A DNA stretch of 45,074 bases, filler included, from Jimgerdemannia flammicorona (GCA_003990765.1; 2 parts of 2 records of this genome joined end to end with filler, not necessarily neighbours in it), one strand, 5' to 3'. Positions 1 to 37,138 are shown, counted from the whole stretch's first letter. Notes: a model not told the origin generated them from the letters alone. Numbers and translations: made by a program.

Positions 1-1175
1 TTTTTAATGGACTCAATGTCTCGCAGATTTTTATTGGAAGGGAATCTAGATTATATAGGCCAAAACCCTCCCTCACCACCCATCAAGCACTGTCCCCTTA
101 TTAACCTAGGCTAACTATTGTCCAGTAGCTCAACTATGCCAGGTGCAGCAGGGCCTATGTTGGCCCATATCTTATTCTATATATCATGCTGTCCTTACCA
201 TCAGGGGGAATTCAGCTATACCACTAATGACTGAAAGCATATGCCCAAAACCCCAATGTATGTACAAGGCTATGCTTGAGTTGAATAGAAAAGTCCCTGC
301 CATCCCAAAGAGAATGACAGGCAAAGAAAAACCCTCATCAAAGTACATCATGGTGGGTAGGGCCAGTTCTCCCAGTTGAGGTAAGTAGAGGACTTATATG
401 TGAGATGGGAGGAGACCCCCAATATTCCACTACTCAAGCCTGTAGATCTTGATCACATTGCTATATCAGCTCCTGGTTCTAGTTGAGTGTAGCCAAAATA
501 TCTGAAATAGATAGTCTTGGGCCCCCTAACCTCCCCCTCAATGATCAGAGTCCAACTTACCAAATTGTCAAAAGAAGTTGAGAGTGATACCTACTATCTA
601 ACCACTCTGTACCAATCAAAAGACCCTACCAAAGCAGCACCTACCCCAGCCCCAATGACTGTCCCCAGCCTGGCATCCTACTGGTTCGCTGTAATTGCTC
701 TTCTATCTATCTGTGATAGCCATCTCCTCTCTCATCCTGACAATATCCAAAAAACAGTCACCTACACCAGAACTGTACTTACCAGGAAGCTCACCAAAGC
801 CAGAGGGTCTCACTACAGATACTGAGAACCTGCAGGTAATCTACACTGAGTACTTGATATCCAAGGTCAACCAACTTCCTACATAATCTGTGATGTATCA
901 AGATAATACCTTATTGGTAACAGCAAAAGGAAGAAGGTGCTATACTAAAATGAGTATACCTTAGATATAGCTAAAGGTATCAGAAACTATAAAAAAGTAG
1001 AGAAGATATCAATCAGATACTGATAAAAGGGCAACTCATCACTATTGCCTCTCTTCTACTACTCTACAATAGGTACAGCAAACCAATCCAAGGTAGAGAG
1101 GGTAATAATTGTAGAAAGTGGACTTGAAAGGTTGTTTACCAAACTATTATAACTGATAAGATAGTGGAGAAAGAG
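1..1175 (-). mobile_element. ~1.17-kb repeat, probably a non-autonomous or 5'-truncated non-LTR retroelement (CpG-decayed copy)
   Basis: Reverse complement aligns along its length with 43910-45074 (e.g. ttttattggaagggaatctagattatataggccaaaaccctcc). On the - strand it ends with AATAAA and then ...gagtccattaaaaa at the contig edge, like a poly(A) end. Confidence 0.7.
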
Positions 1176-1276
1176 AATAAACCTATACATTTCTTATCAA
1201 ATCTTATATTACTGTATAAGTCTAAATTAAGATACAAGTCCTGTAAGAGAGTAGGCTCTGCACTAATCCTTTCAGA

Positions 1277-1808
1277 CTAACTCTTAGTAAGATAATAAAG
1301 AAGAATATTGTGAGTACTATTGAAATTACAGTCAAGCTTTATCTGATATACTGAACAGTAAAATACCTTGGACCCACTTAGGCCATGGTGGAGATATTCA
1401 TAGCATCTATATGTCTTAGAAGTATATTTTTTTGTATAGAGAATAATCTAACACTATGGGTATTTGAGTGCCTTATATGTATATCAGATGCTGTTGAAAA
1501 CAGAAGTATGACTATATATATATTACTTATATAATCTTAGAATGAATATGATGTTGCCTTTGTCTGACTATCCCCTATATATAGAACTCTGGCAGAAGAA
1601 TGATATAATAGTTCTCATATAGCTACTATGTGAGCTTGTAATAATAGTTATTAATTAAATATCAATTTTTTTTATAAATATACAATATGATATACTGCAA
1701 TCTATAAATAGCAATTTTGTATATAAGTTTGTATAAGTAAATAAAATACTTCAGCAAAAATGATATCTGTTCAAATACATGACAAACTATCCTAGACTGA
1801 TCTGTAGC
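1277..1808 (-). pseudogene. Fanzor2/TnpB-like nuclease, C-terminal part (RuvC-II, Zn finger, RuvC-III)
   Basis: The - strand reads YENYYIILLPEFYI*GIVRQRQHHIHSKII..SYFCFQQHLIY / KALKYP*C*IILYTKKYTSKTYRCYEYLHHGLSGSKVFYCSVYQIKLDCNFNSTHNILLYYLTKS*. This is a C>T/G>A-decayed form of LPEF...EEYTSKTCxxC...CxxC...DRDxNGARNI. Confidence 0.88.
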
Positions 1809-2739
1809 TAGTGCTCCAAACAGATGAAGTTGATCTAGATGAGATTCAATTCAGATTTGTCATATGATAGATTTGAATCAACTCAGATTAGTCTTATAAT
1901 TTGATCCAGATTGATCTGGATTGATCTAGATTGATCCATCTAGATTGATCCATCTAGATTGAAATCTTTAGTGACATCACTCTTTCTTTTGTTCATTTTC
2001 ACTCTTATTTTTTTTTCCTACCATATTTTAGTAATATCACCCTTTCTTTTGTTCTCTCTCTTCTTTTGTTCTTTTTTTATTCTTTTTCTTTATTCTTTTT
2101 TCTTTCCTGCCATATTATGAGCAAACAAAACAGCAGTTCTTAATTATATGTTAATCTAGTCTACTCATTTTTTACCCTGCAATAATCATCAAAAAAGGGA
2201 GTATTCAAAGTGAAAATACACTCTCTACTGATAATATTAGATTCTTTCTCATATGGGCAGCACACAAGCTGCTCATCAAGAGCCAAAGGAGTAATAGTAG
2301 TGGTAATAGTGGTAGCAATAGTAATGGTAGTAGTGATGGTAGAGATGAAGAAGAATTCTGACAACAACTCACAGTAGTCCTTCAGACCTCAGAATTCACA
2401 GACCTCATAGCTATATATATAGCAGCCTTTTTAGAACAGCTGATAGTAGATGTAGATTGCTCACTCTGCTGCTACTTGTTTACTTATGTTTATTTAAATT
2501 TCCCCAATATAACTCAATTCACCTTATGCTTTTTTTAGAGTTTATAGCTCTATGGTGAGATCTGCTGACTTTATTCACAATATCTGGTCAAGCTAAAGAA
2601 AGGCTGGCAGATGTTGCAGGGCATACCTTTGGTGGCTGAGTTGTTGAGTCAATGTATCATATAGCAGAGGTCTCAAAAGGAATAGAAGTAAGCCTTTATG
2701 AGCAATCTTGTATAACTCATATAACTCATGCAATTCATT

Positions 2740-2960
2740 AGCATGTAACTCATCTACATGCAACTTACTCACTCACTCACTCATGCTCTTTTTCTGAAAT
2801 ACCCATCTCTATGTTTTATTTAACTTCATTTTTTACATAGTCTTCTCTTAAAAAACACCCATATCTATATATAATCCATCTGCATATAATCTGTCCACAT
2901 GCAACCCATCTGCATGTAACTCATCTACATGCAACTCATCTATATGCAACCCATCTACAT
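2740..2960. repeat. 15-bp tandem repeats (catgcaactcatcta-like)
   Basis: Seen directly; they produce the spurious DELHV-type repeats in ORF 2848..3030. Confidence 0.7.
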
Positions 2961-3039
2961 ACTTATCTTGGCCCCTCAGATCAGGGCTCAGTTCTATTGG
3001 AAAGAAGAGTTCAAAGTTATCTGAGTTCAACCATATCTA

Positions 3040-3935
3040 GCATCTGATCAAATAGAGAAATTTGAGGGTAAGATATTCAGCATGAGTAGTATCAGCATTA
3101 TTTCAAGGCTTGGGAGTCTATATTCAAATTAGAGCTAATTGTTCTTGACCAAGGGGTCCATTGGCCAGCAAGAGTAACCAATGATGAAGAGAACCATATT
3201 ATTATTAATGAACACAGAGAGATGGTTATAATGGTGATAAGGAATCTCTATGGCAATGAGCTTCACTACCACATCAACAAGATTTGCAAGAATTGTATCA
3301 AATACCAGGTAGCAGAAAAGAGGGGGTGAAAAAATCAAGAAGGGGGGGTTTGGACACAAATTGGATATACTACAACACTGGTAAAGGGTGGGTTCCAGAG
3401 TTCTGAAATCTTCTGCACTCATCTCTCTTTTTTTTACTCCTTCCCAGATAATCACACTCTTCACTAACATACTCTTTTTGATACAATTCCAGAGATGTAT
3501 AAGATTCTATATCTCTACCAGAACTTTAGAAGTACTGTCAAAGAGCAAACTGTACATAAGCATAATATGGTCTGTATGATAATAGCAGCTATGATCTGGG
3601 GTTCTTTGAGCAGATTAGTAGAGTATATGACAGGTCAGCTTAGTGGTGATCTCAACACAGCTATATATACATTCTTGGCACAATTTAGCATACCATATGA
3701 GGTAAGGAGCTCTGCTTTTTTGGGGTGCTGCAGCCAGGGAGATTTCTGTAGCCCAGGGGGTTTCTGCTCTCCTATATATAAAAAGAACTGACCAAATACT
3801 ATCTATCTAGTAGGTTTCCAAGCTGGGGCTCTTAGGGCTGGACCAAGGACAGCATCTACCAGCACAGCTTAGTAGTATAAGATTCTGGGCTAAGGGTTCA
3901 CCCAACTATATGCTCATATCACATTAGGATATATC
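3040..3935 (-). mobile_element. Possible 5' fragment (UTR + ORF1 start) of a LINE nested in the hAT element
   Basis: Shares gttgggtgaacc and weak upstream similarity with the 5' region of the LINE at ~27200-27250; decayed - strand ORF at 3135..3470. Confidence 0.3.
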
Positions 3936-4440
3936 AGATACAATATTTCTCTACTTATATATACAGATAATAATATCACTCTGGTAATATTCTATATTCT
4001 GGAAAAGAAGGGCCCAATCTGGGAGGATAGTGACAAAGTCTGGTATAATCTCATCTATGGTTTTGAGGTCTCATTTGTGGCCAATATAATCATCCTATTT
4101 CAACTATACAACCACTATAGTACCATCACCTTTGAGAAGAGCTTGAACATAATAGTCATCATACTTACAACAGATGATAGGCTCATCAAGACCTGGGACT
4201 GATGGGTGGAGTAGTTTTTGTAAGGGTTAGGCAATCTTTTATAAGAGTTTAGCAGTCATTTTGTACAGGTTGGGCTGGCAGCTGAGTACCTCTTCTATAG
4301 TACTAGTTTAGCTGTTATGTCAGGCCCTACTAGCCCCTTGGTCCTACTCTTGTAGTGCTGCTGATGTAATGCTGTGATGTAGGACCAGAGTGCCCATAGG
4401 ACTCAAACTAGTGATGGAGCTCAAATCTGTAGTGGACTTC

Positions 4441-4545
4441 AACTGCCAGAAGTACCCTCTGACTGTCATAAATACTCTCCGACTGCCAGAAGTACCCTCT
4501 GATCACCAGAAGTACCCTCTGACTACCAGAAGCACTCTCTAACCT
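4441..4545. repeat. ~20-bp tandem repeat (ctgccagaagtaccctctga), about 5 copies
   Basis: Seen directly. Confidence 0.8.
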
Positions 4546-4561
4546 GAACTTGGACTCCTTG

Positions 4562-5165
4562 GTGGCTTGGAGCTACCCCTATGCTGTTGGCAGAGGGCCA
4601 CAAATTTTGCACACTCCCTCTACCAACCCTACCAACCCCCGACCTAGACACAGGCTGCTGGGGGGAGCCCTATGCTGTTGGTGCTACAAATTTTGCACAC
4701 TCCCTTCACCTGTCCCATCCATCCCAGACACTTGTGGCTTGGGGCTATCCCTTGCTGCTAGTAGAGAGCTGTAAATTTTGCATGCTCTCTCCACTGATCC
4801 TATACCCACTAATCCTACCAACCAACTCTACTCACTAACCCAGATACTGACAGCTTGGGGCTGCCCCTTGCTATTGGTAGAGGGCTGCAAATTTTGCATA
4901 CTCTCTCCACCTACCCCCCCTCTCTACCAACTCCTCCATCCTGGATACTTATGGCTTAGAGCTACCCCTTACTGCCAGTAGAGGACTATAAATTTTATAT
5001 GTTCTCTCCACTGACCCCACACCCACTGACCCATCCACTAATCTGAATACTGACAGCTTGAAGCACTGATAGCTTAGGGCTGTTCCTTATTGCTAGTGGA
5101 GGACTGCAAATTTTGCATGCTCTCTTTACTATTACCAACCCTACTAACTACTGTACTACTTAGAC
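4562..5165. repeat. Array of ~6 palindromic ~55-bp cores separated by variable C-rich spacers
   Basis: Core ggcttggggctRccccttgctgYtggtagagggctgcaaattttgcatgctctctccac recurs at ~4562, 4652, 4735, 4852, 4951 and 5070. Confidence 0.8.
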
Positions 5166-6673
5166 TGCAAACTCTAGACTGAGTCCTCAGGTTTTTTTTT
5201 CTTTTATTTTTGAAAGATATTAAATATTCCACAAGGTCAACCAACTTATCCATGAACTCCCAGGATCTGCCAAATTTTAGCAGCCTGAGCCTCACCAAGA
5301 CTTCAGATATATATATACTCAGATTATCTCAGTATTCAGTGTATACCTCTTTGGGGCAATAAGGTCTACTCTATCTGAGAACACTCACTCAACAGAAGCA
5401 CTGGAGGCAGAAATTACCAGATAGTCCTGAGTCATACCATATAGGCTGGGGAAGTCTGTTTGATGCAGCTGCACACTTCAGTGGGTAGAGTGGTAGTTAG
5501 ATTGGTGGGTTAAATTGATCCAATACCTGCCTGACAATCCACCTTTTACTAGTTGAGCATCTCTACACTCTCTAGCAGGATTATGTGATCACTGATAAGA
5601 TAAATAGTAAATTCATCTATTGATGGCAGCTCTTTTACTGATAGCTCTCTCTTCTTCTTTCTACTGAAGTAAATATGAGACAGAAGGAATCTCTCAGCAT
5701 ATTCATCTGAACTTCAGCCAGAACCTTGTAGTGGTACATAGTTTTTCCAGTACACTTTGATTATGACCTACTTGGTTCTCTCAATGAAGTGCTGCTCCTA
5801 GCCCTGATCTTTATGGTATTATAGCTTTAAGCATAGGTCCAGCACTGTTTAGAGAAAAGAGAGTGAGTTTTTGCAGAAGTTTCTCTATTTTGGAAGGAGC
5901 AATGACCATATGCTAATACCTGTACTGATTGAGTATATGGCAGTATCTGTTTTGGAGTAGTATTTTCTAAGCTTGCTTAGAGCAACCTCTATTACATCTC
6001 TCTAATCTGGGCTTAACCATAAATCACTATAATCCTTCAGCCTGTCCTTGAGCTTGTCCTCTAGTTGGTCAATCAGAAGGTTGTATACTGATATTGCAGA
6101 GCTTATTGTCAGGGTTATTTATTTGACTATATTCTTTATACAATCATCAAAACACTGGCAGTTATATATAGTGAAGTATTATATTGTACAGAGGTAGATA
6201 AAATAAGTATAGAGCCAGAGCAATCACTACTTACTTCCAAAACTCTGACAACATTCTTAGATATATCTCACTCACTTTCACCTAGAGCCTTGCTCTATAT
6301 TTCCTTATTAGTAGCCACTATTAAATCTATTGGCTTTTTTTATTTTTTATTTTTTTAAAAAAAAAACTTCAATTATCTAAAATAAGTTACTTCAGCCAAC
6401 CAAAGAAAAAAGAATGTATACTACAGCAAACTCCAGCACATGCTGGATCATTACAAATGTTGAGTTCCAACATATACAGATGTTCAATATAAGCTCTTTC
6501 AGGACTAAACTGATTGCTCTACACTACACAGCAAATTTATCTTATCATTGTAGAGATTATTGGACTAATACAACTAGTTTACATAGCTTAGAAATTATAC
6601 TCAGAGTCCCTCCTCTCTCAGATATTTTATCTATATATATAAGATAGTCCTGAATAGTAAGGTTCAGTATGTA

Positions 6674-8743
6674 TGTAAGCACACAACCTCCAAGCTACCG
6701 AAATCACATGTCACCCTCTGAATAAGTCACTGAAATCATATGTGATCTCTGAATAAATCTGGAAATCACCTACTTGATCACGAAGCTGAGTCAAACTGAA
6801 GTCACAGTGCACAAAGCTGAGTCAATATGAAGTCACAGAATACAAGATTCATACAAATGGAATCTTACCAATCAGGACCAAATATATATACCAGACACTG
6901 AGATATATCAAAACAGAGAATCAAAACAAATAACAACCACAACTTCCAAACACACAATATGACCACTGAGATCTACAATTATATCTGCACTGATATTTGG
7001 AATACCATTGTCAATCGAGCCACAGCTCCTCTACCCCTCATGAATATCCATAGCCTAGCACCCCTCTACTTCATGGAAGTCTGATGGAATGCCCTGAACA
7101 TACTTAATGAGGCCTATCGAATCAGACAAATCTCAAGCTACTACCAGATTGGCCGCCTCCTGGAAGACATGGTTGAACACCACCATGATACAGACATTAC
7201 CCAGATGTCTCAATACCAGAAGCTCATTGCTTGCAAATATAGAGAACTCTTCTATAAGTACAGTACCTTTATTTTCTGCCTCTAAGTTACTATCAGTAAA
7301 ATGGTTGCTACTCTGTCCTATGGCCAAATCGATAACATGATATAAGAACTCAACCACAAGTACCTTAAGTATATCCAGACTACAGACAGACCCTTCCCAC
7401 ACCCCAATGACCATATCCTACAAATGCCCCAAGTTGGATATACTATGAAGGATATCTACGATATAATCTGGTTTGATGAAGATAAAGTAGAAGACAATGA
7501 TCCCTTCGACACTAACATGACCCCAAGCCAAGGATCCCTGCCAACACTAATCACACCACCAACCTTGCTGATGAACTTACAACAGTTCATAACCACCTAC
7601 GAGACCTATTAGAACAATGACCACTGGTATGAATACCAATCTGTGTTCACCCCCAATTACTTCAACTACAATAAAGAGACTGGAGAATACAACCTGTACC
7701 TCCAGACAACTCTCGAGATTGAACCAACCACTCCACCACTCAAGTACAAGTGATATGAACTACAGCCACCAGCATACTACAACCCCATGACTCATAGTGC
7801 TGTAATCTATAGAAGGTCACAGATAGCGAATTTAATGAAAGTGAAGATGATGCACCACTCCTTTGCCCCCCAACACCTTATCCAGTATATGAGACAGACA
7901 ATGCTATCCTGTGGGATGGTAATGAAGTTCCAATGTATTACTATCTCAGCGAACAAGGAGAAGTAATCCACGAACTACTCTTCCTAGATAACTACTTCAT
8001 CAGAGATAATACAATTGATGGTGATGTCATCGAAGACTACCCAGACAGTGTCTAAACCTATAAATAGCTTAGCAGTCATAGTATAGTTAGATTAGCCTTA
8101 TACAATATGACTGTGAACTAACTCAGCAGTCAGATGATCTCTTGATATGTCAGATCACTCTTATACTATGTGACTGCATTCCGACTCAGCAAAGGCACTT
8201 AGTACTATATCCATATTTAGTATAGTTCAGATAACCCCTCACTAGTATAAATACCCCCTCCCCTAGACCTCAGAATCTCAGACTTAAAAGACTTGAACAA
8301 TCCAAATACAACTTCTGAGCACTTCTCTATAATATCCCTTTACACAACTACTCCTAGTATAGCAATATCATAAATAGCAAATAAACCTATTTAATAACCC
8401 ACAAATCACTTTTAAGTAAATTTACTCTCTGTTAGGTCCTACTTCTAACCCTATCATGAAATTTCCTAATTGAGTATTGTCTGCAGTAATACACCAATTC
8501 AACTAAGCTGGTCTTAGTTTCTTGAACTTCCTAAAATATGGAAAATCCTGAACATCCAGAACTAGTCCAAGAAAGGACTTTGGTTGAGACATCAATCCAA
8601 TCTTAAAATCAATAAGTATAGAGGACATACTCCATATGAAATTGATCTTGACTATAAGAAAACAGTCTTCCAGAACATCCAGAACTTCCAGAAAACCCTT
8701 CCAGAACTATGTAACGGTTACCCTAAAAAGCAACCCTCTTACA
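6674..8743 (+). mobile_element. 2.07-kb solo LTR
   Basis: Ends tgtaag...cttaca; 5-bp TSD atgta/atata. Removing it restores the transposase motif MQY*TYILNLTIQDYL (decayed RCxAHILNLAVQD). Confidence 0.85.
6959..8055 (+). pseudogene. ~365-codon accessory ORF of unknown function inside the solo LTR
   Basis: ATG at 6959 downstream of a TATA-like tract (~6882). The frame is broken by a few TGA/TAA/TAG codons and one frameshift near 7820, and includes listed ORF 7424..7612. Confidence 0.65.
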
Positions 8744-10009
8744 ATATAGGTCTAGTATTGCATATAGCAGATTTCTATACTAAAGGCCACATTTTCCTAT
8801 TTGAGGCTGACTGCTAAAACTTGGAAAAATGTTGAGTTGTTTGTGGCATTATCTGTTATAATAGTCAAAATATATACTTGAAATATTTGGTCAGCAAATT
8901 TATATAAAAATAAATAACTAATAAAATCTATTTTGTTTTAGAACCTCTTTTAAAATACTAACCTGATGACAAGTCTTCCTTTTTTATCTTGGTTGTGATC
9001 TCAAGCTTCTGGATACAACTAATAAAAGTATCTGCAATATTGTCTCCAGAATAAGGGCCAGCAAGTTTGATAAAGTCAAGAGTGAGAGATTTAAGCTGCC
9101 AATTGAGATCAATTCAATGACCAGTAATGCCTAGAAATTAAATTATATTGGGGAATGTCTATGTGTCAATCATAAATGAAATTTTGCCTACTGAATTCTG
9201 CTTATTGAATGTGAGGTTAAATTGATGAGCTCTTTATAAAAATATATATATAATTTAGCTTGCAAAAGTTATAGTACTACTCTTATTTTATCTAAAGTAT
9301 CTGGTGAAGATTGTTATACTCCTTTCTATAGGTCTCCAGGACATCTTTGCAAATAGTATTGATACTTAGCAAATATAAATCATGCTTGAGGAGGTCAAAG
9401 ATGCTATACAATTGATTACTTTTGATAGTTGTGAATAGCTGGTCTATACATACAATCTAGCAAATAAGTCAATTTCGAAATTCTGCTAAAGAGTATGGCT
9501 AAATATTTTTGATTAAATGAGATTGTTGGTATAGAAATGATCAGGCAATCAGATAAATATACCCACTATAGCTTAGATATTGATTTTATTTATCTTCATA
9601 TTCTTTTTGATTTTGTCAAAGTACTTGTCTTTTATGTATCAATATATGTTTGAAGTCATATCACCAAGCATTTTGAACTTCTAGCTGGTGCAGTTTATAG
9701 AGGTGGATGAAACAGTATCATGTATATATTAAACAAAAGTATTAGTTATATCAATAGATGCATCTTAATTTTTTATCTGCAATAATTACAAACAATATTA
9801 TCTCCTATCTTAGCATAATGTTGCCAGATTTCAAAGTAAGAATTGCATGGAAGGTGTGGAACTATTAGGAATGTTTGACTTGAAGCATCATTAGTACTGT
9901 AAACTGTTGAAGACTAATCTGTCAATATGTGTATTTGCATGTTTGTATATATATATATGTTTATATATATATATTATATATGTGGATATATCTAGCATAT
10001 AAGTCATGT

Positions 10010-10235
10010 GTAGGATTCAAATTGGAGGATTTAGTTGAAGGATTCAGATGAGGATTCAGATTGAAGGATTCAAATTAGAGGATTTGAATTAGAGGATTTA
10101 GATTGAGTAATTCAGATTGAGTAATTCAGATTAAGTAATTCAGATTGAGTAGTTCAGATGGGGTAGTTCAGATGGAGTAATTCAGATAGGTGATTTAAAT
10201 AGAGTAATTCAGATAGAGTAATTCAGATTAATCCA
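10010..10235. repeat. 14-bp subterminal tandem repeats of the hAT element (gagtaattcagatt-like)
   Basis: About 15 degenerate copies just inside the TIR. Confidence 0.8.
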
Positions 10236-10332
10236 AGTTGATTCAGATGGCTTTGGATTTGAGATTTAGATCAAACTATTATGTGATGAATCAAATCTAG
10301 ATTTGATTTGAATTGACTCATTTAGAGTACTA

Positions 10333-11039
10333 TCTGTAGTATTTACACTTATTTACCTTCTTATGAATACTGTCTTACTTATTCTATAGTATGTCATATA
10401 TATGGCTCAGTCTATAGATTTGGCAATATCATTCTTTTTCTATTTAATTACTAGTCTACTCAGATCATATTCAGTCATAAATATTTATATACTAAAATTT
10501 AATGTAATAACTTTGCACCTCTTTTATCAGATATAGGGCCTTGGTCCTTAACTTATATGTTGAGAAATATAGAAGATATAGAGATAGAATTTATTGAGAC
10601 AATTCATCACAAGCCAACTGTTATACCTAAGACTGGCTGGTAGAGACTCAGCAGATCTCATGTTGGAGAAGAATGCAAATTTGTCATATAATTTTCCCCA
10701 GTACTTAGAAAGTATTACAACTGACTGCTGATAGTTCTTTTTAAAATAAAACTTCATTTGAAATATCTTATATTTTGCTGCAAAGTTAGAGATATACCCC
10801 TTGAGAAGATCATTTATAGCCTCATCATGAATGTCATATAATATCTCCAGAACCCACTTATTATTATCTTTGAAGTTAGAGATATTGAGATACTATATCT
10901 GTAGATCTTTCTTATAATATTTTATATCTTTGTTTTGAACTGTAGTAAGGCACTGATTGTAGGTCTACTATGCCATCTCCATCTATGCTCTGAGCTTTTT
11001 CTGCTCTTTATATATAGGAAAAAGGCAGATGTGTTACAT
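10333..11039 (-). pseudogene. Fanzor2/TnpB-like nuclease, N-terminal part (HTH/WED-like region, RuvC-I)
   Basis: Reads M*HICLFPIYKEQKKLRA*MEMA**TYNQCL; MKFYFKKNYQQSVVILSKYWG..FAFFSNMRSAESLPASLRYNSWLVMNCLNKFYL; VITLNFSI*IFMTEYDLSRLVIK*KKNDI (decayed VIALDPGVRTFMTGYDPSG); IYRLSHIYD. Confidence 0.88.
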
Positions 11040-11963
11040 CTTTGGCAATCTCTTATCTTTTTTTATAATTAGCAATAGAATATAGCCCATTATATCATAT
11101 CACAAATACTGTAATGATAGAGAGTAGATCTTCTGCAAGCTCATCAGCCTTACTGCTATTGGCACTGATGTCAGAATTGAGTACTATAAGTTGAGTCCTA
11201 TTTTTTGCAAAGATCTACTCTATGAGCTCTGATCTGAAACAACACAACTAGTCCTTTCAGATAACTACTACTTCTTTGACCCCTCCTGTATATATATATT
11301 CCAAAAGGGCCATAAAACCCCTGTGTTTCCAGTTGAGCCCTGAACCAATATTACTGACAATCTCATAGCCTGGGAAATGCTGTTGCAGATTAGCAATTTA
11401 TCATTCAAGATCTCACTGTTGGTATTCTGAGCTAACTCTGGCATAGCAGACCTTGACCTTTTTTGTAGTCTGGTTTGTTGGTTGGTTGTCACCAAAAGCT
11501 CTTTACACATTTGTGATAGAGTAGAGTTGTTTGCTACCAGGGGTTCTGACAATGGCAATTTTTTCAGAGATGGCCCACAATCGCAGTATCTCAACTAGTG
11601 CTCCCAACGAATCGAATCGAATCGAAGGCTAATTCGATTCGAGGTCCGATTCGAACCCTATTTTTCGAAATGTAATAACTTGACAAATACACATCTAAAT
11701 TCAATGATCTTTAGCTTGTTAGATTTCTCATATATAGGGGAATTAAACAAGCTAAAAATAATTGAATTTGGACATGTATTCGTCAAGTTATTACATTTCG
11801 AAAAATAGGGTTCGAATCAGACCCTCAATTCGATTCGAATGACCCTCAATTCGATTCGATTCGAATTGATTCGATTCGTTTGGGAGCACTAATCTCAACC
11901 AAGACATCATGTGTCTCTTGTATTTTGCTCGAGCTTGTGTATGTAGTATTGGTTTGAGCCAGG
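11000..11963 (-). pseudogene. tnpA: IS607-family serine recombinase TnpA (N-terminal HTH + catalytic domain), split by a MITE
   Basis: Reads YTSSSKIQETHDVLVE|ILRLWAISEKIAIVRTPGSKQLYS...VCYARVSSEYQQ*DLE**IANLQQHFPGYEIVSNIGSGLNWKHRGF..EVVVI*KD*LCCF..ELAEDLLSIITVFV; the catalytic YARVSS lies at 11428-11445. Confidence 0.92.
11596..11891. mobile_element. 296-bp foldback hAT MITE
   Basis: TIR tagtgctcccaa(a)cgaatcgaatc; perfect 8-bp TSD atctcaac (11588-11595 and 11892-11899); almost the whole element is an inverted repeat. Confidence 0.95.
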
Positions 11964-12189
11964 TGTATTTTTGTAGGATTGTGGAATAATGCGGAGTATT
12001 CACAAAAGGTAATATGCGCGTTTCGCATGTTGCTTTAAAAAAGGTAACGCCACTAAATGTATATACGGTCTTGTGCGTTGATATATATTAATAAGATGAA
12101 TTGTGTGGTTTATTCCGGAATGTTCGAAAATGATTCAACGGTCCATGGACCCAACATTCCCCAGAACCTCACTCACTACTCGATCCCCC

Positions 12190-16029: not shown

Positions 16030-18696
16030 ATGAATCTCTCTTTCAATCCTCGCCACCCCCCTTACGCTGAGGTCGCCGTACTCATTAAAACCTCCGGCCC
16101 CAATGCCCTCAAAACTCTCAGACTGACTCCCGTCGCAGACCACCCAACCACCACCCTCACCCCCGCCGCCGCCGCCGCCGCCAAAAATCCCGCCAAGCTC
16201 ACAGGCTCCGTTGCCGTCCTCCGCTATCTCGCTCGCCTCGCCCCCCACCCCTCCCCCCTCTACGACGAGCATACTCTAACCTCGCACCGCCATACCTCCG
16301 AAACCGACTCTCTTCTTGACCTTCTCCGCCAGCACCCTTTCACCACCCACCACCTCGCCACCCTTACCCAAACAGTTCACGCCCGCCACCCGCAATTTCT
16401 CGTCGACCACGCAAAGCTCCTCCTGGCGGACTACGCTGCGTGGGGCTTCCTCCGCGTGCACCCGAGTAAGGATACCGCCACGTGGGTCGCAAAGATGGAC
16501 GCACTGCCCGAGTGTGCCGAAGCCGTGCGCGTGGTTGACGCCGCCATCGCCGCACCGCCGTTACAGACCCCGTCCGTTGTCGAAGTCAAGGAGATCCCGC
16601 GAATCTCCGGAACGAACCCGGACGAGAACGTGTTGGACGCATTCAGAAATCTGATTGCCGACCAGATCGCCAGGCTGGCGGGGTCCGATCCGGTGTTCGT
16701 AACCTCATTGATTGAGGCACCACGCACACCGGACCACGGTGATTTTGCTATTGCCGTGCCGAGGATGAGGGTCAAGGGCAATCCGGCGGTGTTGGCGAAG
16801 GAGTACACCGAAAAGGTATGCTCCATTGTAACATCCTTTCCTTTATTATCCAACGTCTCTGGTACTCTTTCCGTGTCATTTATCTCATAACCGTCCACTC
16901 ATCGTTATACCCTTCCAGTTCATCCCGAACCAATACATCCTCTCCGCCAGCTCAATCGGCCCCTTCATGAACTTCAAGATCTCGCACTCGTTGCTGAACC
17001 GTCTGCTGCTTGCGCTGATCTCGTCACAGAAAGAGGCCTTCGGTACCAACACTTCGGGTGCCGGTAAAACCGTCGTTGTTGAGTACAGTTCACCAAACAT
17101 CGCGAAACCCTTCCACGCGGGGCACCTCAGGAGCACCATTATCGGAAACTTCATTAACAATGTGCATGTCGCAAACGGGTGGAAGACCATCACTATGAAT
17201 TATCTGGGGGATTGGGGGAAGCAGTATGGTGGGGGTTTTTTTTTTTTTTTTTTTTGGCCGATAGGAGGATGGGATGGATGAAGGTTATTTGGTCATCCTA
17301 GCTGTGTTATTATATATGTATAAATGCATAGATTGGAGGGAGGCTGCCTAATTCCGACGATATATGAATTTGCGCTAACCGATGGCTCCTCAAAACATTC
17401 ATAGGTTTGTTAGCGGTTGGTTATAACAAGTATGGCAAGGAGGATGAGCTCGAAAAGGACCCGACCAAACATCTGTACGATGTGTACGTCCAGATCAACG
17501 TGAGTTTTATCTTCTTGAGACGGAAACAAAAGCCTGTCCATGCTATGGTTCGTCCGTATGCATGATTCTAATCAATATATTGTTCCCTCTCACAGGCAGA
17601 CGCCGAAGCGGATCCGACTATCCACGATGCGGCCCGCGCCTACTTTAAACAGATGGAAGATGGCGACGAGGTGGCATTAGCATTATGGCGCAAGTTCCGC
17701 GACATCTCTATTATCAAGTACCAGTCGACGTACGCGCGTCTCAACGTCAAATTCGACATCTACTCTGGCGAGTCGCAGGTGGCGAAACCGATGGCTCGCG
17801 CGCTGGCGCTACTCAAGGAGAAGAACTTGGTCAAGGACTCCGAGGGAGCGCTCATCATGGACCTGAACGAGCACAAGCTTGGCACAACCGTGATCCAGAA
17901 GCAGGACGGCGCGGCGTTGTACATGACACGCGACATCGGGGCCGCGATGGAGCGTTACGAGAAGTTCCAGTTCGACTCTATGATCTATGTTGTGGCGTCG
18001 CAACAGGACCTGCATCTCAAGCAGCTGTTCAAGATCCTGGAGCTGATGGGGTTCGACTGGGCGGCCAAGTGCACGCACATCAATTTCGGGCTGGTGTCAG
18101 GCATGTCAACACGCAAGGGCACGGCGGTGTTCCTTGAGCAGATTCTGGAGGAGACCAAGACGGCAATGCACGAGGTGATGCAGAAGAACGAAAAAAAGTA
18201 CGCACAGATTGAGGACCCGGACACCGTCGCCGACATCATTGGAATTTCCGCCGTCAAGGTCCAGGACATGGCTGCCCGCCGTATCCGCAATTACGACTTC
18301 GACTGGAACCGCATGTTCAGCTTCGAGGGCGACACGGGACCTTATCTGCAGTATGCGCACGCCCGTCTCTGCTCCATCGAGCGTAACTCCGCCATACCCA
18401 TCAACCCCGACGCGGACGTCGCGCTGCTGACCGAGCCAGCGGCTGAGGAGCTGATCACCATGATCGCGCAGTACCCGGACCTTGTCAAGGCGCTGCCAGC
18501 GTCGCCCGAGCCCTGCAACGTCGTCACATACGCGTTCAAGCTTAGCCATATCGTGTCCATCGCACTCGAGGGGCTATGGGTCATGGGGCAGGAGAAGAAG
18601 TTGGCCGAGGCGAGGTTGCTCATGTATTGGGCTGCTAGGATCACGCTAGGAAATGCCATGAGGTTGATTGGGTTGACACCGCTGGAAAGGATGTGA
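16030..18696 (+). CDS. RRS1: Arginyl-tRNA synthetase with an N-terminal GST-like extension; exons 16030-16815, 16919-17228, 17405-17499, 17596-18696
   Basis: VVVEYSSPNIAKPFHAGHLRSTIIG (HIGH-like), NYLGDWGKQYG, GMSTRKG, GDTGPYLQYAHARL and C-terminal LTPLERM; GT-AG introns keep the frame. Confidence 0.96.
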
Positions 18697-20278
18697 GGAT
18701 GGTTGGGACGGGGAAATTACGCTGTAATTGTACAATTGAATAAACATCCAGATTTTTGTGGTTCTGTGAATACAGTGGTGTAGATTTGGGCTTTACTTTG
18801 CCATTTTGACCAAACAGAGTATGGTATATACCATGGGGTATCTGAAGCTCGATTACTTCTACTTCATGCTTGAATTTCTTTGAATATTTGGCACCACACA
18901 CCAGTCGAAATCACGAAATGTTCGACTAAAATCCTAACCTTTATATATTATTATTAATTACAAATGATTAGTTACAAGATCTATATCTCGACTAATGATA
19001 TTATTTGATCATATTAAAATGTATTAAATTGCTGTTATATCTTTATTATTAAAATATGTTTGAGAAAGTCTTGTTTTTTTTTAATATATATATATATATA
19101 TATAGTTTTAGATCATGTTACATTATTGTATTTTTAATAAAGTATAATAGATAATGTATTTAATTTTAAATATGTCATGTTCAGAATGTGGATAAAAAGG
19201 TTACATTTTATTCCTTCAAAGTTTACAGAGATCTTTAGGTTGCCCACCATCATAGAACAGTACCATGTGAGCAACAGGCAGGCGGTATGTGGGCAAGTCA
19301 GTCGATGTGGCCTTTGACATACCCAAACCGATGCCGGCTGAGAAAAAACGTGCAAGATGGAACATAACGCTGCAGTTTGCGTTCCAACAAACCGTCACGA
19401 GATGGTGGTCTGGACAGTGACGACGATATTTGTGTTGAAGGCAAAGTCGTATTAGGATTTCTTGTTGCCCCCTCACCGGGGTCGAGTTTCAGGGGAGATT
19501 GAACTCTCCACCTTTTTGGTCCCGCCCAGTCGTTTGGGCGGCTGGGTCGGAGCTTCTGTTCCGAAGAGAGATGGCGATTGGTTCAAAGACAAGGAGAGTT
19601 ATATGAAAGAGAGTTATATGAAAGTTTGTGGAACGGGCAATGTTTTGGCGTCCAGGCCTGCAGAATGTCAAGAGGTTACAATGGCGTGATCCGACCGAGA
19701 ACAATGACGAAATTGTCCCATCGCATTCTTGCGTTGCTCTATGGCATGTCTCGCTTGTCATACTCATCTTATGCATTCTCCCCTCCACTATCGGGTTCTC
19801 TAACATCCGGTGTCTCTCGTGCAATGGATCGGCATTCGTTTCAAGCCGACTGGAGAAACTACCTTAGATGGAGAGTGTATTTATGGCCGGAGGTGTCTTG
19901 TGGGAATGTTGACGTATCAAATCTGGCGACATCTGCGGAAGTGTCCTGGGATCACTAGATGGTGGGTCGCTGCCTCATTGGTGTTGTGGACATCGTCCTC
20001 TGCTTGATCAGCCGAGTTATTGTTGTTACGGTGCGCGCTTCCCCTCCTCAAACCAAGATGGCATTATGTAGCGCTTGAATTCGAGCTGTGTTCCACCATG
20101 AGTCGTTAGTGATTAGAATTTGCTCCAGAGTAACAATGGCAATGCATAGATAAAGGTCATAACGTTTGGGAGAAGAAGAAAAAAACCGGTCCAGACCGTA
20201 TGATACAGATTAAAAAGTCTATAAATATTTGGATATTTGGATATATATATATATACATGCACTAAAGTTTAGAAAGAA

Positions 20279-20323
<45 letters not shown>

Positions 20324-20433
20324 CTTTTTTATCCCTCTAAAACAGCCGGGACATGTAGATGCAACCATTAGTAATTTCGAATATATACAAGATATGTTAC
20401 GGGATAAGAGGGAAAATATAAATGTTTACTGGT

Positions 20434-21649
20434 TCAAACTTTATGCGTCTCGAGAGGTTTCCTCCCAAACGCGTAAAATGCGTGCCAGTGTACCTGATAC
20501 TCGGTAAATTCCTCCATTGCGTGCATAATCATCTCGTCGTACACCTCGTTTCTCATACCGAGAACCCTAGCAATGTGCTTTTTTGCCGCTCTCATGGCGC
20601 TCTCAATGTTCTTGGCTGACATCGTCGCTATTTCTTCCGGACCCCACCCGACGGGCACCGAGCGATGGCTATGCTCAACGTTTTCTAGGCCTGCCATTGT
20701 CAGAGTCTCGCCAAACACATGAACTATTTCGGGGTTGATTCCGGCTATCTTGTACACGTCTCGAACTTATTTTGGTAGAAATTGGTTAGCTCGGGACACA
20801 CTTAACACACAGAAAATATTAAGTAGCAGCGTACATACCCTTCGCGTATAATGCTGTGGTCCTCGGTCCTCCGTGCAGCCATCCGTCCATATCAACTGTT
20901 ATGCACGAGAAAACGACTAAATACAAGGCACATGATGCAACACAAATCTTGCTACAATTATACCCAACCCTTGTGTTCACTTACCCAGTTCCACCCATCC
21001 TCCGGGCTTGGTCACCCTTATGAGCTCGCTTATCACCCTTGGCCACTCGTTCTCGCGGAAACACAATGTTTGCAACCTTTGAAAAACGTAGTCGAAGCTT
21101 CCGTCCGCGAAGGGTAGGTTGAGTGTATCGGCAGTCAGGAAATGGCAGTTTGGCGGCACCTGCTTGTTATAGCTGTAAGCCTCCACCAGATCCGTTCCCG
21201 TGAAACTGCTGGCCTGATAGACGCGCGCCATTTCGATTGACCAGATTCCTGTCCCGCAACCGGCTGGTTAAAGGGTAATCATCGTTCATGATTAATTAAA
21301 CGAGCCCTTTGGGAACAATTAATAAAAATAGCAACAACAATTATAACATACCGTCCAGCACCCTGGCTCCTTGCCACAGTTGTTCCTGCAGGGGCGTCAT
21401 GTGGTTACTGCCAAAAACAAAATTGACGAGGTAGTGTTGCTGATTTAAGCGGTTGGCCTCCTCCATGTCGTGGGATAACACATAGGCCGAAGGCGCGGCC
21501 TTGGTGAGTCCATTTCCGTCGACCCATTTAAGGCCGAGCGGCGGGTTGAGATCTGCTGTGGGCGGCCTAGCTGAAAGAACGGGAGGATGCTGAAGACCGC
21601 GTTGTTCATGCTTTCTCTTGTAAAACAGTCTGGATTGCGCGCTTCCCAT
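20434..21649 (-). CDS. LaeA-like SAM-dependent methyltransferase, 4 exons
   Basis: YVLSHDMEEANRLNQQH; VLD|AGCGTGIWSIEMA across an intron; LPFADGSFDYVFQR; ELIRVTKPGGWVEL; C-terminal YAFGRKP. Confidence 0.9.
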
Positions 21650-22490
21650 GATTGTGATGAGAAAAGGAGAGGAAAGGAGCGTTTAAGGTATTTCTGATTG
21701 ATTTAGTTGCAAGTTTAAATCTGCACGTGGTTCCAGGAATTCTTTAATCTCTGGAAGGGATCGACGGAGCACGCGACGGAGTGGCTGTGAACTCCTGCCA
21801 AATCCACCGGTATCTCGATGAGATCTATATAAATGTACTGTCGATCCCCTTCGAGCATGCAGCATGCGCCATCTGCGTGAATAATCTCAGTATGGCCGTG
21901 TGTTGGTTGTGAGGGTGGGACAACATTTTTATTGGTTCAGAGCTTTTGTCATGAGATGTCAGACTCATAATTTCCCGATGCGCCACCGCCGCGCGCACCA
22001 TTAAAACCTTCCGCTTGGGCCAAGCCAAGCCTGTGATGGTCTTTACGAAATTGGATCCAAAATGAAATGGGCAGATAAGATCCGTAGCCAAACCTTCAAA
22101 CTCATGAGGCATTTTTTTCCCAACCACAAGGGTTGCATAAAATTAGAAAAAATGCCTTTTCCACCAACGTAACACAGATTTATTATTGAGCGCGCCCGTC
22201 GGATCCACTCAAGCTATCATCCGACAGCTTACTCCGCCGCCCCCAAACCTTTTTCATCGTTGTACCCCCTAGCGACCCCAGCTCTCCCCTCTTCCACCTC
22301 ACTCGCCTCTGTTTCACCAATGGCCTGTACAAGGCCTTGGTAGCTTCGGTTGCGAAGGTATTCCCCTGGTACGCAACACGGTCATTGGAGAAACGAGGTC
22401 ATATTGGCGCGAGATTCAAAATTCGGGAAAATAGAGTGCCAACCCCCACTTCCCCACTTTCCAAAACAACAAAAAAAAAAAAAAAAACAA

Positions 22491-22590
22491 NNNNNNNNNN
22501 NNNNNNNNNNNNNNNNNNNNNNNNNNNNNNNNNNTTAATTAATTAANNNNNNNNNNNNNNNNNNNNNNNNNNNNNNNNNNNNNNNNNNNN
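22491..22590. other. Artificial contig-joining linker
   Basis: 44 N + TTAATTAATTAA (stops in all six frames) + 44 N, exactly 100 bp, between segments of 22490 and 22484 bp. Confidence 0.92.
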
Positions 22591-25500
22591 AATCCCCCTA
22601 GGGGGGCCCCTCTTCCCTACCTCTTCTTGATGAAACACTATGCTATCAAACACCATTACCACCCATCCACCACTCTGTGTGCAGATCCCTTCTACCAGAC
22701 AGCGACATTGCCCACTGTGTGGTCCCCATCCAACCCACCACCCCATCAGCAGATCTGCCACTAACTCCTCCCATCTCAACAACTTCTCCCATATCTCTAT
22801 CTGCTGTTCCTCCTTAAAAACAAAGAGCCAATATCCCACCAACCCCACTCACACTGCAATGACCCACCCTACAGTAAGCCATCTATTGCCAACACCTTCC
22901 ACAAGTCGAGATTCCAGATCCTCCCAACAACCCTGCTCTCCATCTGGTCTCCTTTCAACCCCTAGCCAGTCCCCAACAGCTATCCAAAAGTCCCCCAGCA
23001 CCTCATGCATCTGTCCTTAGAAACATGGACCCAAACTTGAAGTTCACAGTTACTACAGATACATCTAACTTTGCCATTGGTGCAGTCATTTCTCAAGATG
23101 ATGGTCAAGGACACTGACCTATTGCCTTTGAGTTAAGAAAATTGTCTCCAGCAGAACAAAAGCTGGCTACTTATGAAAAGGAACTCCTGGCAATTATGCA
23201 TGTCCTCAAGACTTAGCAATACTACCTAGAAGAAGTTGAGTTTGATATGATCACTGATCACAAGTCCCTTCAGTACATCAACACTTAACTAACTCTTTCT
23301 CGCCAACAAGCCAAGTGGAGTCAACTACTTCAGGCCTTTACTCCAAACATCATCTATAAGTCTGGTAAAACTCTAGTTGTACCAGATGTACTTTCAAGAA
23401 GATCTGACCTTGCTGCAATTTTACAAGTCACTATGACACCTGAATTCCTCAATCAGATCAAGAAGGCATATGAACAAGACTCTCTGGTTCTACAAAAGAA
23501 TACCAAGGAATTCAAGGAAAAATACACCATCAAGGACAACCTCATGTACTATCAAGACAAAGTATATATTTCTGCCAACCCTGAACTATGGTATAAGATT
23601 CTTTGTGAACATAATGACTCCCTACTAGCTGGTTACCTTGGAACTGAGAAGACTGTCAAGAATATCCAATGAGACTACTACTGGCCAAACATGCTCAAGG
23701 AAATCAAGGAGTATGTCCAAAGCTGCAATCTTTGTCAAAGAAATAAGTCAAGCAACCAAGCATCCACTGGTCTTCTACAACTCTTGCCAATTCTAACCAA
23801 GAAGTTTGAATAAGTCACAATGGACTTCATTGTGCAACTCCCATGAACCAAAACAGGCTATAATATTATTGTTGTATTTGTGGACCATTTCACCAAGATT
23901 ACAATCGCCAAGCCAATCACAACCAATGCCACTACCCCAGAAATTGCCAGAATCTTCAAGACTGTCTTCCACCATTATGGACTTCCCTGAGTAATTATCA
24001 GTGACTGTGACTCCAAGTTCACAAGCCACTTCTGGTAAGCACTCTTTAAGACCCTTGGAACCCAAATTGCTATATCTACTGCCTTCTACCCTCAAACTGA
24101 TGGACAGACTGAGAAAATTAACAGAATACTTGAACAAATGCTCAGAAACTATGTGTCTTATGAGCAAGATAATTGAGACCACTATCTGACCTATGCTGAG
24201 TTCACCTACAATAATGCCATCCAATCATCAACTGGCCTTTCTCCATTTCAGCTACTTCATGGTCAAAACCCCAAGACCCCTACAAGCCTAGTCTCATTCC
24301 AGCAATCCAGTCACACACAAGTTTCCACAGTCCAGAACCTTATTGACAAAATGGATTCTCTCCTCATGATTACCACTACAAACCTGCAAAGGCTCAGCAA
24401 TATCAAGCTAAGTATGCAGACAAGAAGTGGTAAGATGTCATATACAACATTGGTGATATGGTTTTACTCAAAGCTGACAATATCAAGGCTCAATCTCAAG
24501 TCAATCGCCAGTCAGCCAAATTCCAGCCCAAGTACCTTAGACCCTTTGAGATCACCAAGCAAGTCTCCACCTGGTCTTACTGTCTCAACTTGCCAACAAC
24601 CATGTGTATATACCCAGTATTCCATATGTTACAACTCAAGGCCTGGAACCAGTCACCTCTATATCCTGGCCGAATTCTGACACTATCAGCACTAGTGATA
24701 GTTGAAGACCACATTGAGTATGAAGTTGAGAAAATCTTGGACAAATGAGTCTGGTACTATCACACAGAATACCTAGTCAAGTGGATGGGTTATCTTGAAT
24801 ATGATGCCACCTGGGAACCTGCCACCAATCTCAGGAACTCCCAAGACCTCATCTAAGAGTTTGAGCAAAAGGAACTCATTGACTGCCCATGAGGTTCTCC
24901 TCTTGGATAGTAGATGATATACTGTGTTGATTAGGTACATTAAGCATCAGGGTACTCTAAAGAATACTGTATCAGAAATAAGAGATATAGGAGAACTCTA
25001 TAAATCTTACAACCAATGAGGTTTGAATCAGTTCTTATCTGATCAAGATGATACTTTGGCCCTCATCTTATACAAGAATGGCCAGTCTTTGCCAATGAGC
25101 CAACATATTTTATTTGAAGTTTCTTTTAGTCTTATTGTTTATTATATATAACTTTGAGAATTCAATGAGGATATTGATTCTTAAGGAAGGAGAGATATAA
25201 CATTTTAGCATAGTTTATTTCTTTTCTTTGTCTTTTCTCAATATTCTACAATCTTCCAATACTTTCCAAACACTTAGAAATCCTTTCTTAGTGCTGAGCA
25301 TCCACTAGTACTTATTTAGCTAGTTACTGAATATTCTGGAAACTTGTAGAACTTTATTCATCATTATTTGTCATTCTTGCTGAGAACTTTCCTCTTGGCA
25401 TTTTCCTTTGATTTCTCAGATCCTTCCAGATCCTTCTTTCAGATCTTATATAAATATCCCCTTTGTTCTTATGAATAAAGCCTCAGAATATTTTCTTCCA

Positions 25501-25609
25501 GAAATCCTTCAAGAATACTTGAACCTTTAAGTATCTCTCTGAGCTACTTTAGACTAATCAGAACTTCCAGATTTAGTTACTTCCTCTTAAAGAAACTAGA
25601 ACCATTATA
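22591..25609 (+). mobile_element. Decayed Ty3/Gypsy chromovirus-like element: RT, RNase H, integrase, chromodomain, PPT and 3' LTR (~25196-25609)
   Basis: VTTDTSNFAIGAVISQ; YEKELLAI; ITDHKSL; integrase HHCC-like region and YPQTDGQTE; chromodomain EYEVEKILD..EYLVKWMGY..ATWEP; polypurine aaggaaggagaga at 25183-25195. Confidence 0.88.
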
Positions 25610-25739
25610 TCTCTCATATACAAATTACTATTGCAAAATGAATTAATAAGTTGTTCAAAGATAATGAGCCAGCCCTAGCTCATTTCTAAGAAGTAGTCCC
25701 AAAAGACTTCAGATATATCTAAAGACACCATTAGGAGAA

Positions 25740-27112: not shown

Positions 27113-27199
27113 CCAGGATATCTTTCTCAGTTACCATTCATGTTATATATACTTTTACAATACACTTTCAAGACATTTATTGAAGAAAGATACTAAGAT

Positions 27200-37077: not shown

Positions 37078-37138
37078 TGACAACTTGATGCCCATTGGCT
37101 GGTGATTCAAAATGAATCCCTCACTTTTAAGCTGAAAA

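Follow-up and report, generated by a model that had tools for sequence, protein, structure and literature searches.

Transposons of the IS607 family that carry a Fanzor2-type nuclease, or a close relative of one, are on record from viruses, fungi and cyanobacteria. Bao and Jurka 2013 (PMC3627910) list one such Fanzor2 element, ISvAR158_1, from the Paramecium bursaria Chlorella virus AR158. The Fanzor2 (Fz2) nucleases are 'found broadly in fungi' according to the accessible portion of Saito et al. 2023 (PMC10432273), and that of Gilbert and Cordaux 2013 (PMC3673617) reports decayed IS607-like sequences in Ustilago hordei, Lachancea, Ashbya and Saccharomyces strains. For Fanzors and the cyanobacterial pro-Fanzors with a relocated catalytic glutamate, the text of Yoon et al. 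2023 (PMC10711439), as far as it is available, gives the pattern DPG...ExxxxxxCxxC...CxxC...D. Here we describe a 45,074-nucleotide stretch of DNA from Jimgerdemannia flammicorona (GCA_003990765.1; hereafter, the window), the first 12 kb of which almost certainly hold one degenerate, ~2-kb transposon copy of the IS607 family, belonging to the clade marked by this DPG/relocated-Glu pattern (Fanzor2 plus cyanobacterial pro-Fanzors). Since Fanzor2 and IS607 sequences have already been reported across fungi, the relic is a further member of a known family and ordinary as a specimen. The part that deserves specialist attention is the layout of the family as a whole: the recombinase gene, tnpA, is nested within the open reading frame (ORF) of the nuclease.

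The relic resembles each of the described systems in part. Like ISvAR158_1, its family combines an IS607-type TnpA and a Fanzor2-type nuclease in nested genes; in the viral locus (L021 of our sample) the TnpA ORF at 3832–4389 lies inside a nuclease ORF at 3827–5470, with the nuclease in the +1 frame, and GenBank lists the products as AR158_C068R (548 aa) and AR158_C069R (186 aa), both under the name 'transposase'. However, ISvAR158_1 is intact and viral, whereas the relic is fungal, dead, interrupted and, by phmmer score, nearer to two other relatives (the cluster of the protein P0007 and the viral locus L001). The best solved relative is the mimivirus nuclease ApmFz2 (Acanthamoeba polyphaga mimivirus L79, PDB 9b0l), which also has the relocated RuvC-II Glu; in a comparison of protein chains, the segment starting at residue 108 of a P0007 model is the counterpart of the N-terminal domain that precedes its TnpB core. 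It differs in sequence (22% identity), and in that the catalytic residues of the window's copy are all mutated. Cyanobacterial pro-Fanzor IS607 elements (Heteroscytonema, Microcoleus, Hormoscilla; the available text of PMC10711439) share both the catalytic signature and the nested TnpA, but they are bacterial, compact and, almost without exception, form a clade of their own (counts below). Finally, the fungal IS607-like sequences of PMC3673617 and PMC10432273, set beside the relic by their description in the available text, are likewise IS607/Fanzor2 remnants with stops and frameshifts, but come from another lineage than the Mucoromycota-like relic.

Recognition of the element depends on the removal of two younger insertions from DNA that is AT-rich over the first 12 kb of the window (GC 0.29–0.38, versus 0.50–0.59 in the gene block to the right). 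A first-pass annotation of the window had proposed that a hAT transposon at 1809–10332 and a miniature inverted-repeat transposable element (MITE) at 11596–11891 could be taken out to leave two overlapping minus-strand frames, and these coordinates proved right to the base. The large insertion has the termini TAGTGCTCCAAA (start) and, reverse-complemented, TAGTACTCTAAA (end), and is flanked by an 8-bp target duplication (TCTGTAGC at 1801–1808, TCTGTAGT at 10333–10340); within it, the hAT dimerisation domain PF05699 is matched on the minus strand at ~5295–5468 (E 1.3e-6). The MITE shares its terminus (TAGTGCTCCCAA) and has a perfect 8-bp duplication (ATCTCAAC at 11588–11595 and 11892–11899). 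Both insertions therefore have the short terminal inverted repeats and 8-bp target duplication by which hAT elements are recognized, with the dimerisation domain found in the larger one only, and the MITE belongs to the same hAT family. The de-inserted join, read on the minus strand, consists of 12200–11892, 11587–10333 and 1800–1000, with one copy of the target duplication dropped per insertion. It contains two overlapping frames, each continuous across the junctions; because the reading frame is kept at both junctions only if a single copy of each duplication is retained, the frames provide independent support for the insertion model.

One of the two frames encodes a serine recombinase. Across the MITE site without a break, the joined tnpA frame matches positions 3–194 of a 202-position TnpA profile from viral relatives (180.6 bits, E 3.5e-57). 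A single piece of it (11595–11050, minus strand, stops read as X) scores 115.4 bits (E 2.2e-33) against the NCBIfam equivalog model for IS607 transposases, NF033518 (transpos_IS607), for which the cut-off is 110, and Pfam Resolvase matches residues 49–162 of the tnpA piece (E 1.1e-7). The domain order is that of IS607: a helix-turn-helix (HTH; LRLWA..KI..RTPG..LY) comes first, followed by the catalytic serine-recombinase domain with YARVSS. All of the TnpA landmarks named in the first-pass annotation could be located, namely the HTH and the motifs YARVSS (11445–11428), IGSGLNW (11349–11329) and ELAEDLLSI (11142–11116). The gene is no longer translatable; eight internal stops lie in the frame between 12028 and 11053, and the MITE interrupts the HTH.

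The second frame encodes the nuclease. A phmmer search of 1.84 billion representative sequences with its 270-residue N-terminal part returned 459 proteins at E≤1e-3, 147 at E≤1e-10 and three at E≤1e-30 (best, 9.3e-34). PF12323 (HTH_OrfB_IS605) is present in all 18 relatives that were scanned and PF07282 (Cas12f1-like TNB) also in 13 of them, while Resolvase is found in none. A nuclease profile built from the 67 phmmer matches of at least 430 residues aligns to the join over positions 4–506 in a single frame (E 1.7e-78) and then, past a frameshift, over positions 507–581 (E 9.6e-15). The first of these alignments spans the hAT site, so the two halves beside the hAT element do not come from different families or frames. 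Searching the joined sequence with TnpA and TnpB/Fanzor-relative profiles, the check proposed with the first-pass annotation, thus yields strong matches in both frames, and their E-values rule out chance.

The nuclease is closest to Fanzor2 by sequence and by structure. A profile of A1, an alignment of 30 full-length relatives, was compared with solved structures; it matches the mimivirus Fanzor2 'TnpB-like protein L79' (chain 9b0l_P) at E 2.9e-57 and ISDra2 TnpB at E 7e-20. An AlphaFold (AF2) model of P0007, the closest full-length relative, has a mean predicted local distance difference test score (pLDDT) of 74.9 and resembles 9b0l_P with Z 26.0 over 406 residues and ISDra2 TnpB with Z 21.9. 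A Fanzor1 chain is absent from both the sequence and the structure match lists, an absence that is no evidence of exclusion. Together with NF033518 and the 67-relative profile, these comparisons uphold the first-pass identification of an IS607 element with a TnpB/Fanzor2-type nuclease.

The catalytic signature of the family also points to the DPG/relocated-Glu clade. Three catalytic columns are invariant in A1 (P0007 numbering): D386 (in DPG), E528 (in xExYTSKTC) and D563 (in RD). The full pattern is present in 52 of the 67 representative matches; among viral ORFs of at least 430 residues 24 of 46 have it, and among bacterial (mostly cyanobacterial) ORFs of that length 76 of 78. The relic's own spacings from Glu through the zinc finger to RuvC-III, 6 / 14 / 8, fit the published pattern. 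One claim of the first-pass annotation fails here. It had taken LPEF (~1590) for RuvC-II, but the clade uses the relocated Glu (PMC10711439, available text) instead of the canonical position: the family consensus at ~1590 is LLPxF, in which x is variable, while the invariant Glu stands six residues before the zinc finger and has become Lys in the window.

The copy is heavily decayed. Eight stops in tnpA and 25 in the nuclease (33 in all) are joined by the nuclease frameshift between 1482 and 1477, and neither the DPG, the relocated Glu nor the RuvC-III Asp survives in working form, so that all three catalytic residues are lost. The remains of RuvC-I (expected at ~10490), the CxxC..CxxC finger and RuvC-III (~1330) were found where they had been predicted to lie (Table 1). 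In the nuclease, 87 columns are conserved in at least 80% of A1; the relic retains 44 of these and differs at the other 43, and 38 of the differences can be explained by C>T/G>A alone, none by the reverse. The equivalent figures for TnpA are 33 kept and 15 changed among 48 conserved columns, with 12 changes of the C>T/G>A type and again none in reverse. For the two genes together, C>T/G>A accounts for 50 of the 58 conserved positions that have changed and no change runs the opposite way, in line with what the first-pass annotation had maintained for most lesions; from a single copy, however, an ancestral T and a mutated C are indistinguishable. Its verdict that the copy is dead also holds, on the count of stops, the frameshift, and the loss of the catalytic D/E/D and three zinc-finger Cys. 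On sequence grounds, the relic must today be unable to transpose or to cut DNA, and with every catalytic residue gone it is of no direct use as a tool.

The same direction of change is seen next door, in a repeat of which the window holds two inverted copies (9–1173 and 43915–45074) and which runs off both window ends. Of the 240 mismatches between the copies, C>T/G>A in the copy beside the relic (the left one) makes up 194, with 24 changes in the opposite direction and 22 transversions. Classical, CpA-targeted repeat-induced point mutation (RIP) was considered as the cause and rejected, since neither contexts nor indices fit; a 'RIP' label can therefore cover the direction of change only. To our knowledge, RIP is not established in Mucoromycota.

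Table 1. Features of the relic element, of the insertions that interrupt it and of the adjoining repeat (window coordinates).
Feature	Position	Strand	Basis or remark
5' end of relic: candidate tnpA ATG at 12028; TnpA homology from ~11944; nuclease ATG at 11910 (MMSWLR)	11892–12028	-	frame maps, profile alignment
tnpA, main part; codon phase 11595; remainder of MerR-like HTH and catalytic YARVSS	11053–11587	-	NF033518, Pfam Resolvase, profile
Nuclease part 1a, +1 frame of tnpA; extension (PFWN...) overlaps tnpA to 11053, core from ~11040	10333–11587	-	phmmer, profile
Nuclease part 1b, past the hAT; carries LLPEF segment at ~1590	1482–1808	-	in the frame of part 1a once 1801–1808 is dropped
Nuclease part 2, past the frameshift between 1482 and 1477; terminal TAG at 1279–1277	1277–1477	-	profile positions 507–581, E 9.6e-15
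RuvC-I DPG, now NFS (AAT TTT AGT)	10499–10491	-	each codon reachable by G>A/C>T only
Relocated RuvC-II Glu, now Lys (AAA)	1432–1430	-	G>A type
Zinc finger: Cys to Tyr at three positions; Cys kept at 1357	1411, 1402, 1348	-	G>A type
RuvC-III RD, now CN; Asp to Asn (AAT) at 1327	1330–1325	-	Asp change of G>A type
103 nt past nuclease stop; right end and guide-RNA (omega/reRNA) scaffold tail expected here	1174–1276	-	boundary to unrelated repeat at 1173/1174
hAT transposon, 8.5 kb, inside nuclease gene	1809–10332	- (transposase relic)	termini, 8-bp target duplication, PF05699
hAT-type MITE, 296 bp, within HTH-coding part of tnpA	11596–11891	.	terminus common to the large hAT
Flanking repeat, outside the element; inverted copy of 43915–45074	9–1173	.	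78.9% identity over 1171 nt

Several observations weigh against the assignment of the element to this clade of IS607. Searched directly against Pfam, the nuclease pieces gave one sub-threshold match (PF07282, 17.8 bits against a cut-off of 26.3) and two other pieces were assigned no family; the nuclease assignment therefore rests on homologues rather than on curated models. The RuvC-I and relocated-Glu relics are 175 residues apart, versus a published 120–160, over a stretch that is length-variable in the family and here spans the hAT site. In a FastTree phylogeny of 89 rows, the window's nuclease lies on a long branch (1.28), with odd composition, within no strongly supported clade. The two ends of the element could not be placed, with one copy in the window and too low a DNA similarity to the closest relatives, and no guide RNA was demonstrable: Rfam gave no match in the heavily mutated relic or in five relatives. 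Lastly, the contexts of the C>T changes in the flanking repeat (CpC 48, CpA 40, CpG 32, CpT 7) and the classical RIP indices are unlike those of Neurospora-type RIP.

Where the element came from can be judged from its relatives. The nearest named ones are predicted proteins from Glomeromycotina, Diversispora epigaea RHZ59702.1 and Gigaspora rosea CAG8745236.1, of which the latter covers the HTH and YARVS motif of TnpA and then continues in the nuclease frame. In the FastTree phylogeny the window falls among the representative matches, while 17 of the 18 bacterial rows group apart from it, in a fully supported (100%) clade that also holds one viral row. A scan of JGI metagenomes returned a single 4.3-kb contig. 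We regard it as barely credible that the relic is no eukaryotic Fanzor2 element but came recently from bacteria, as a contaminant or a transfer of a cyanobacterial IS607. Cyanobacterial elements do have the whole architecture in common with it, nested genes included, but among full-length matches the 598-residue read-through of the nuclease scores highest by phmmer with the P0007 cluster (225 bits) and next with viral L001 (176 bits), against 75.7 bits for the best cyanobacterial ORF. The separate bacterial clade also argues against such an origin, as do the two eukaryotic transposon insertions and the long-term C>T decay, which show old residence in a fungal chromosome. It is highly improbable, too, that the relic was brought in as part of an integrated giant-virus genome and never lived in the fungal genome as a transposon of its own: homology is limited to ~2 kb between a fungal gene block and an unrelated repeat, no other viral gene was noticed in the window's ORF lists, and the nearest named relatives are genes of fungal assemblies, even though many relatives lie on giant-virus contigs and L001, the closest viral one, adjoins an ORF read by eye as capsid-like. 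As a separate observation on the tree, locus L004 (an IMG/VR contig of 9.2 kb) falls inside the cyanobacterial clade with strong support and may be a mis-binned cyanobacterial or cyanophage contig.

Taken as a resident IS607 element with a Fanzor2-type nuclease, the relic suggests the following mode of action for its intact ancestor, by analogy with described systems. TnpA, with an N-terminal MerR-like HTH and its catalytic Ser in YARVSS, would move the element in double-stranded form, with neither inverted repeats nor target duplications. The nuclease would take up a guide RNA made from the 3' end of the element, and would cut empty target sites beside a transposon-adjacent motif, thereby favouring retention of the element. 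The subsequent history can be read from the sequence and consisted of (i) residence of the element in a fungal chromosome, (ii) insertion of the hAT into the nuclease gene and of the related MITE into the tnpA HTH, and (iii) heavy C:G>T:A mutation, of the kind also seen in the neighbouring repeat, which gave rise to the stops and removed the D/E/D and three Cys, with the frameshift near 1480 adding to the damage. Nested insertions and C>T decay together show how such genes become hidden from ORF tracks. The relic also adds a Mucoromycota-like lineage, with nearest relatives in Glomeromycotina, to the range of IS607/Fanzor2.

The arrangement of the two genes is of wider interest. In the relic, tnpA lies almost wholly inside the nuclease ORF: the overlap measures 554 nt, on the same strand, and relative to tnpA the nuclease is read in +1. 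This is nesting, not a short operon-style overlap. The nuclease ORF starts ~35–120 nt from the start of tnpA and runs for ~185 codons in the +1 frame before the TnpB-like core is reached, and the profile alignment ran upstream of that core into the region that is tnpA read in +1. In the relatives, the N-terminal 100–290 residues contain no Pfam domain, and share with the +1 frame the motifs ..AMPE..NT..PFWN..LWLPTKTDCVDLD..SWFS.

The same layout was found throughout two samples of relatives. The viral sample comprises 78 loci from viral contigs, many of them giant-virus bins; 77 have a nuclease ORF and 30 a TnpA ORF match. In 29 of these 30 the TnpA ORF lies within the stop-to-stop ORF of the nuclease, always with the nuclease in +1, and where TnpA is full length the overlap is 428–776 nt. 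The 23 viral TnpA ORFs of at least 160 residues contain, on average, 1.0 stops in the +1 frame, compared with 16.6 in the +2 frame and 5.9, 6.7 and 16.9 in the reverse frames. Over the last 150 tnpA codons of these 23 loci there is one +1 stop in total, whereas 1000 synonymous-codon shuffles gave 62 on average and never fewer than 45. The bacterial sample comprises 80 loci, nearly all cyanobacterial, with 59 distinct TnpA ORFs of at least 160 residues; every one of the 59 is nested in a +1-open nuclease ORF (median overlap, 611 nt). This brings the number of intact relatives with a nested tnpA to 82 (23 viral, 59 bacterial), and the closest full-length relative, locus L159, has the same layout.

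The ATGs of the two genes lie within 10 nt of each other in 10 of 21 viral loci, and an origin of the nesting as a eukaryotic adaptation, in which two near AUGs are used through leaky scanning, was considered. It was rejected, as the nesting is the same in every one of the 59 bacterial elements that have a full tnpA.

We consider the chances roughly even that the following holds for the whole DPG/relocated-Glu clade of IS607: tnpA is nested within the nuclease gene, ~450–780 nt code for the recombinase and, in +1, for the N-terminal region of the nuclease, and the 'unique N-terminal extension' of Fanzor2 is an overprint of tnpA that was already present in bacteria. In the literature found by full-text search, including that on named elements and the text supplement of PMC10711439, the nesting goes unmentioned, the search having covered text and not figures or PDF supplements. 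The words TnpA, IS607 and overlap likewise do not occur in the available text on ApmFz2 (PMC11832414).

The main alternative is that the open +1 frame over tnpA is untranslated, that its similarity among relatives is a shadow of tnpA conservation, and that the nuclease starts after tnpA. The conserved stretches of the extension do coincide with conserved stretches of TnpA when the two frames are read side by side, and the reduction in synonymous divergence that a second coding frame would entail is moderate: divergence is only about a third to a half lower in tnpA than in the core. Moreover, 38 of the 77 viral loci lack both extension and tnpA, their nucleases beginning at the core, and one of the 77 has tnpA homology without the extension; the extension is thus not needed by every relative. 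We nevertheless think it unlikely that the frame is silent. The depletion of +1 stops (one observed versus a shuffled mean of 62 over 23 x 150 codons) and the open +1 frame of 59 of 59 bacterial elements with full tnpA speak against it, start codons stand at the head of the long ORF, and six viral loci retain the extension though their tnpA homology is gone. Also in favour of translation, the synonymous difference is lower in tnpA than in the core in 39 of 45 locus pairs with a core difference of 0.3–0.6 (bin means of 0.19–0.36 versus 0.37–0.55; the pairs are not independent).

Structure prediction points the same way. In the P0007 model, residues 110–163 are predicted to be folded (pLDDT 67–87) between disordered segments at 1–108 and 164–196. 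Model residue 108 aligns to residue 53 of 9b0l_P, the start of its N-terminal domain, while TnpB structures start at model residue 200. According to the available text of PMC11832414, the N-terminal domain of ApmFz2 comprises residues 53–130, with RuvC-R at 65–91 and a 'thumb' at 109–130, and follows a disordered nuclear localization signal at 1–53.

If the extension is translated, so that one stretch encodes both a recombinase and a working nuclease domain, then the two proteins are evolutionarily locked together, any ancestral or engineered Fanzor2 inference must satisfy two frames at once, and overprinting as the source of the N-terminal domain of Fanzor2 becomes something that can be tested. 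The nesting, if general, would also account for the many contigs on which gene callers report only one gene of the pair, and TnpA would have been systematically overlooked wherever only the long ORF was called. Because gene callers keep only one of two nested genes, censuses of TnpA or Fanzor2 made from called genes undercount the clade. In the 15-billion-protein collection, the nuclease of locus L001 is present and its TnpA absent; for locus L017 the reverse is true.

The boundaries of the relic can be narrowed, if not fixed. Its right end lies no farther out than the border with the unrelated repeat at 1174, and its left end between about 12030 and 12130, with GC climbing from ~12100. No second copy or empty site was found in the window, in which the only extra match is the unrelated repeat (9–1173 / 43915–45074), and DNA alignment to the closest relatives, L159 and L001, gave just two short matches, both inside genes, which leave the ends unfixed. 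An Rfam search of 1000–1810 returned one chance-level miRNA match (E 0.74). Cyanobacterial copies measure 1843–1846 bp, with the right end 10–13 nt past the stop; as ~2.3 kb of coding sequence is packed into these 1.8 kb, the guide-RNA scaffold must lie inside the ORF. Among individual copies, L125, L128, L129 and L131 (Heteroscytonema) and L090 and L093 (Hormoscilla) are 99.6–100% identical over only 1810–1846 bp, with the right end 9–13 nt after the stop.

Around the hAT site (10370–10333 / 1800–1745), the window has ~37 extra residues between the RuvC-I relic and the next conserved helix. These may be natural, given that the family varies in length there, as the long insert of P0018 shows; the hAT insertion may also have been accompanied by a small rearrangement.

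Other features were noted in the remainder of the window. An arginyl-tRNA synthetase fragment at 17572–18696 is 72% identical to Umbelopsis and 67–70% to Glomeromycotina (best match, 79%), and from such similarities the host looks like an early-diverging fungus of the Mucoromycota type. Two runs of 44 N (22491–22534 and 22547–22590) lie within a transposon-rich stretch, and an integrase-like ORF was seen by eye at 24177–24680. Between 27000 and 32000 there is a strong, sustained GC skew of +0.35 to +0.56 at a GC of 0.42–0.46; Tandem Repeats Finder, run on 19000–36000, detected no array within that interval. The right copy of the flanking repeat, 43915–45074, has no Pfam domain in any frame. 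To its left, at 36000–43900, are long plus-strand ORFs that appear retrotransposon-like by eye (zinc knuckle, dUTPase-like or protease, reverse transcriptase), and this stretch ends exactly at the start of the repeat copy (43914/43915).

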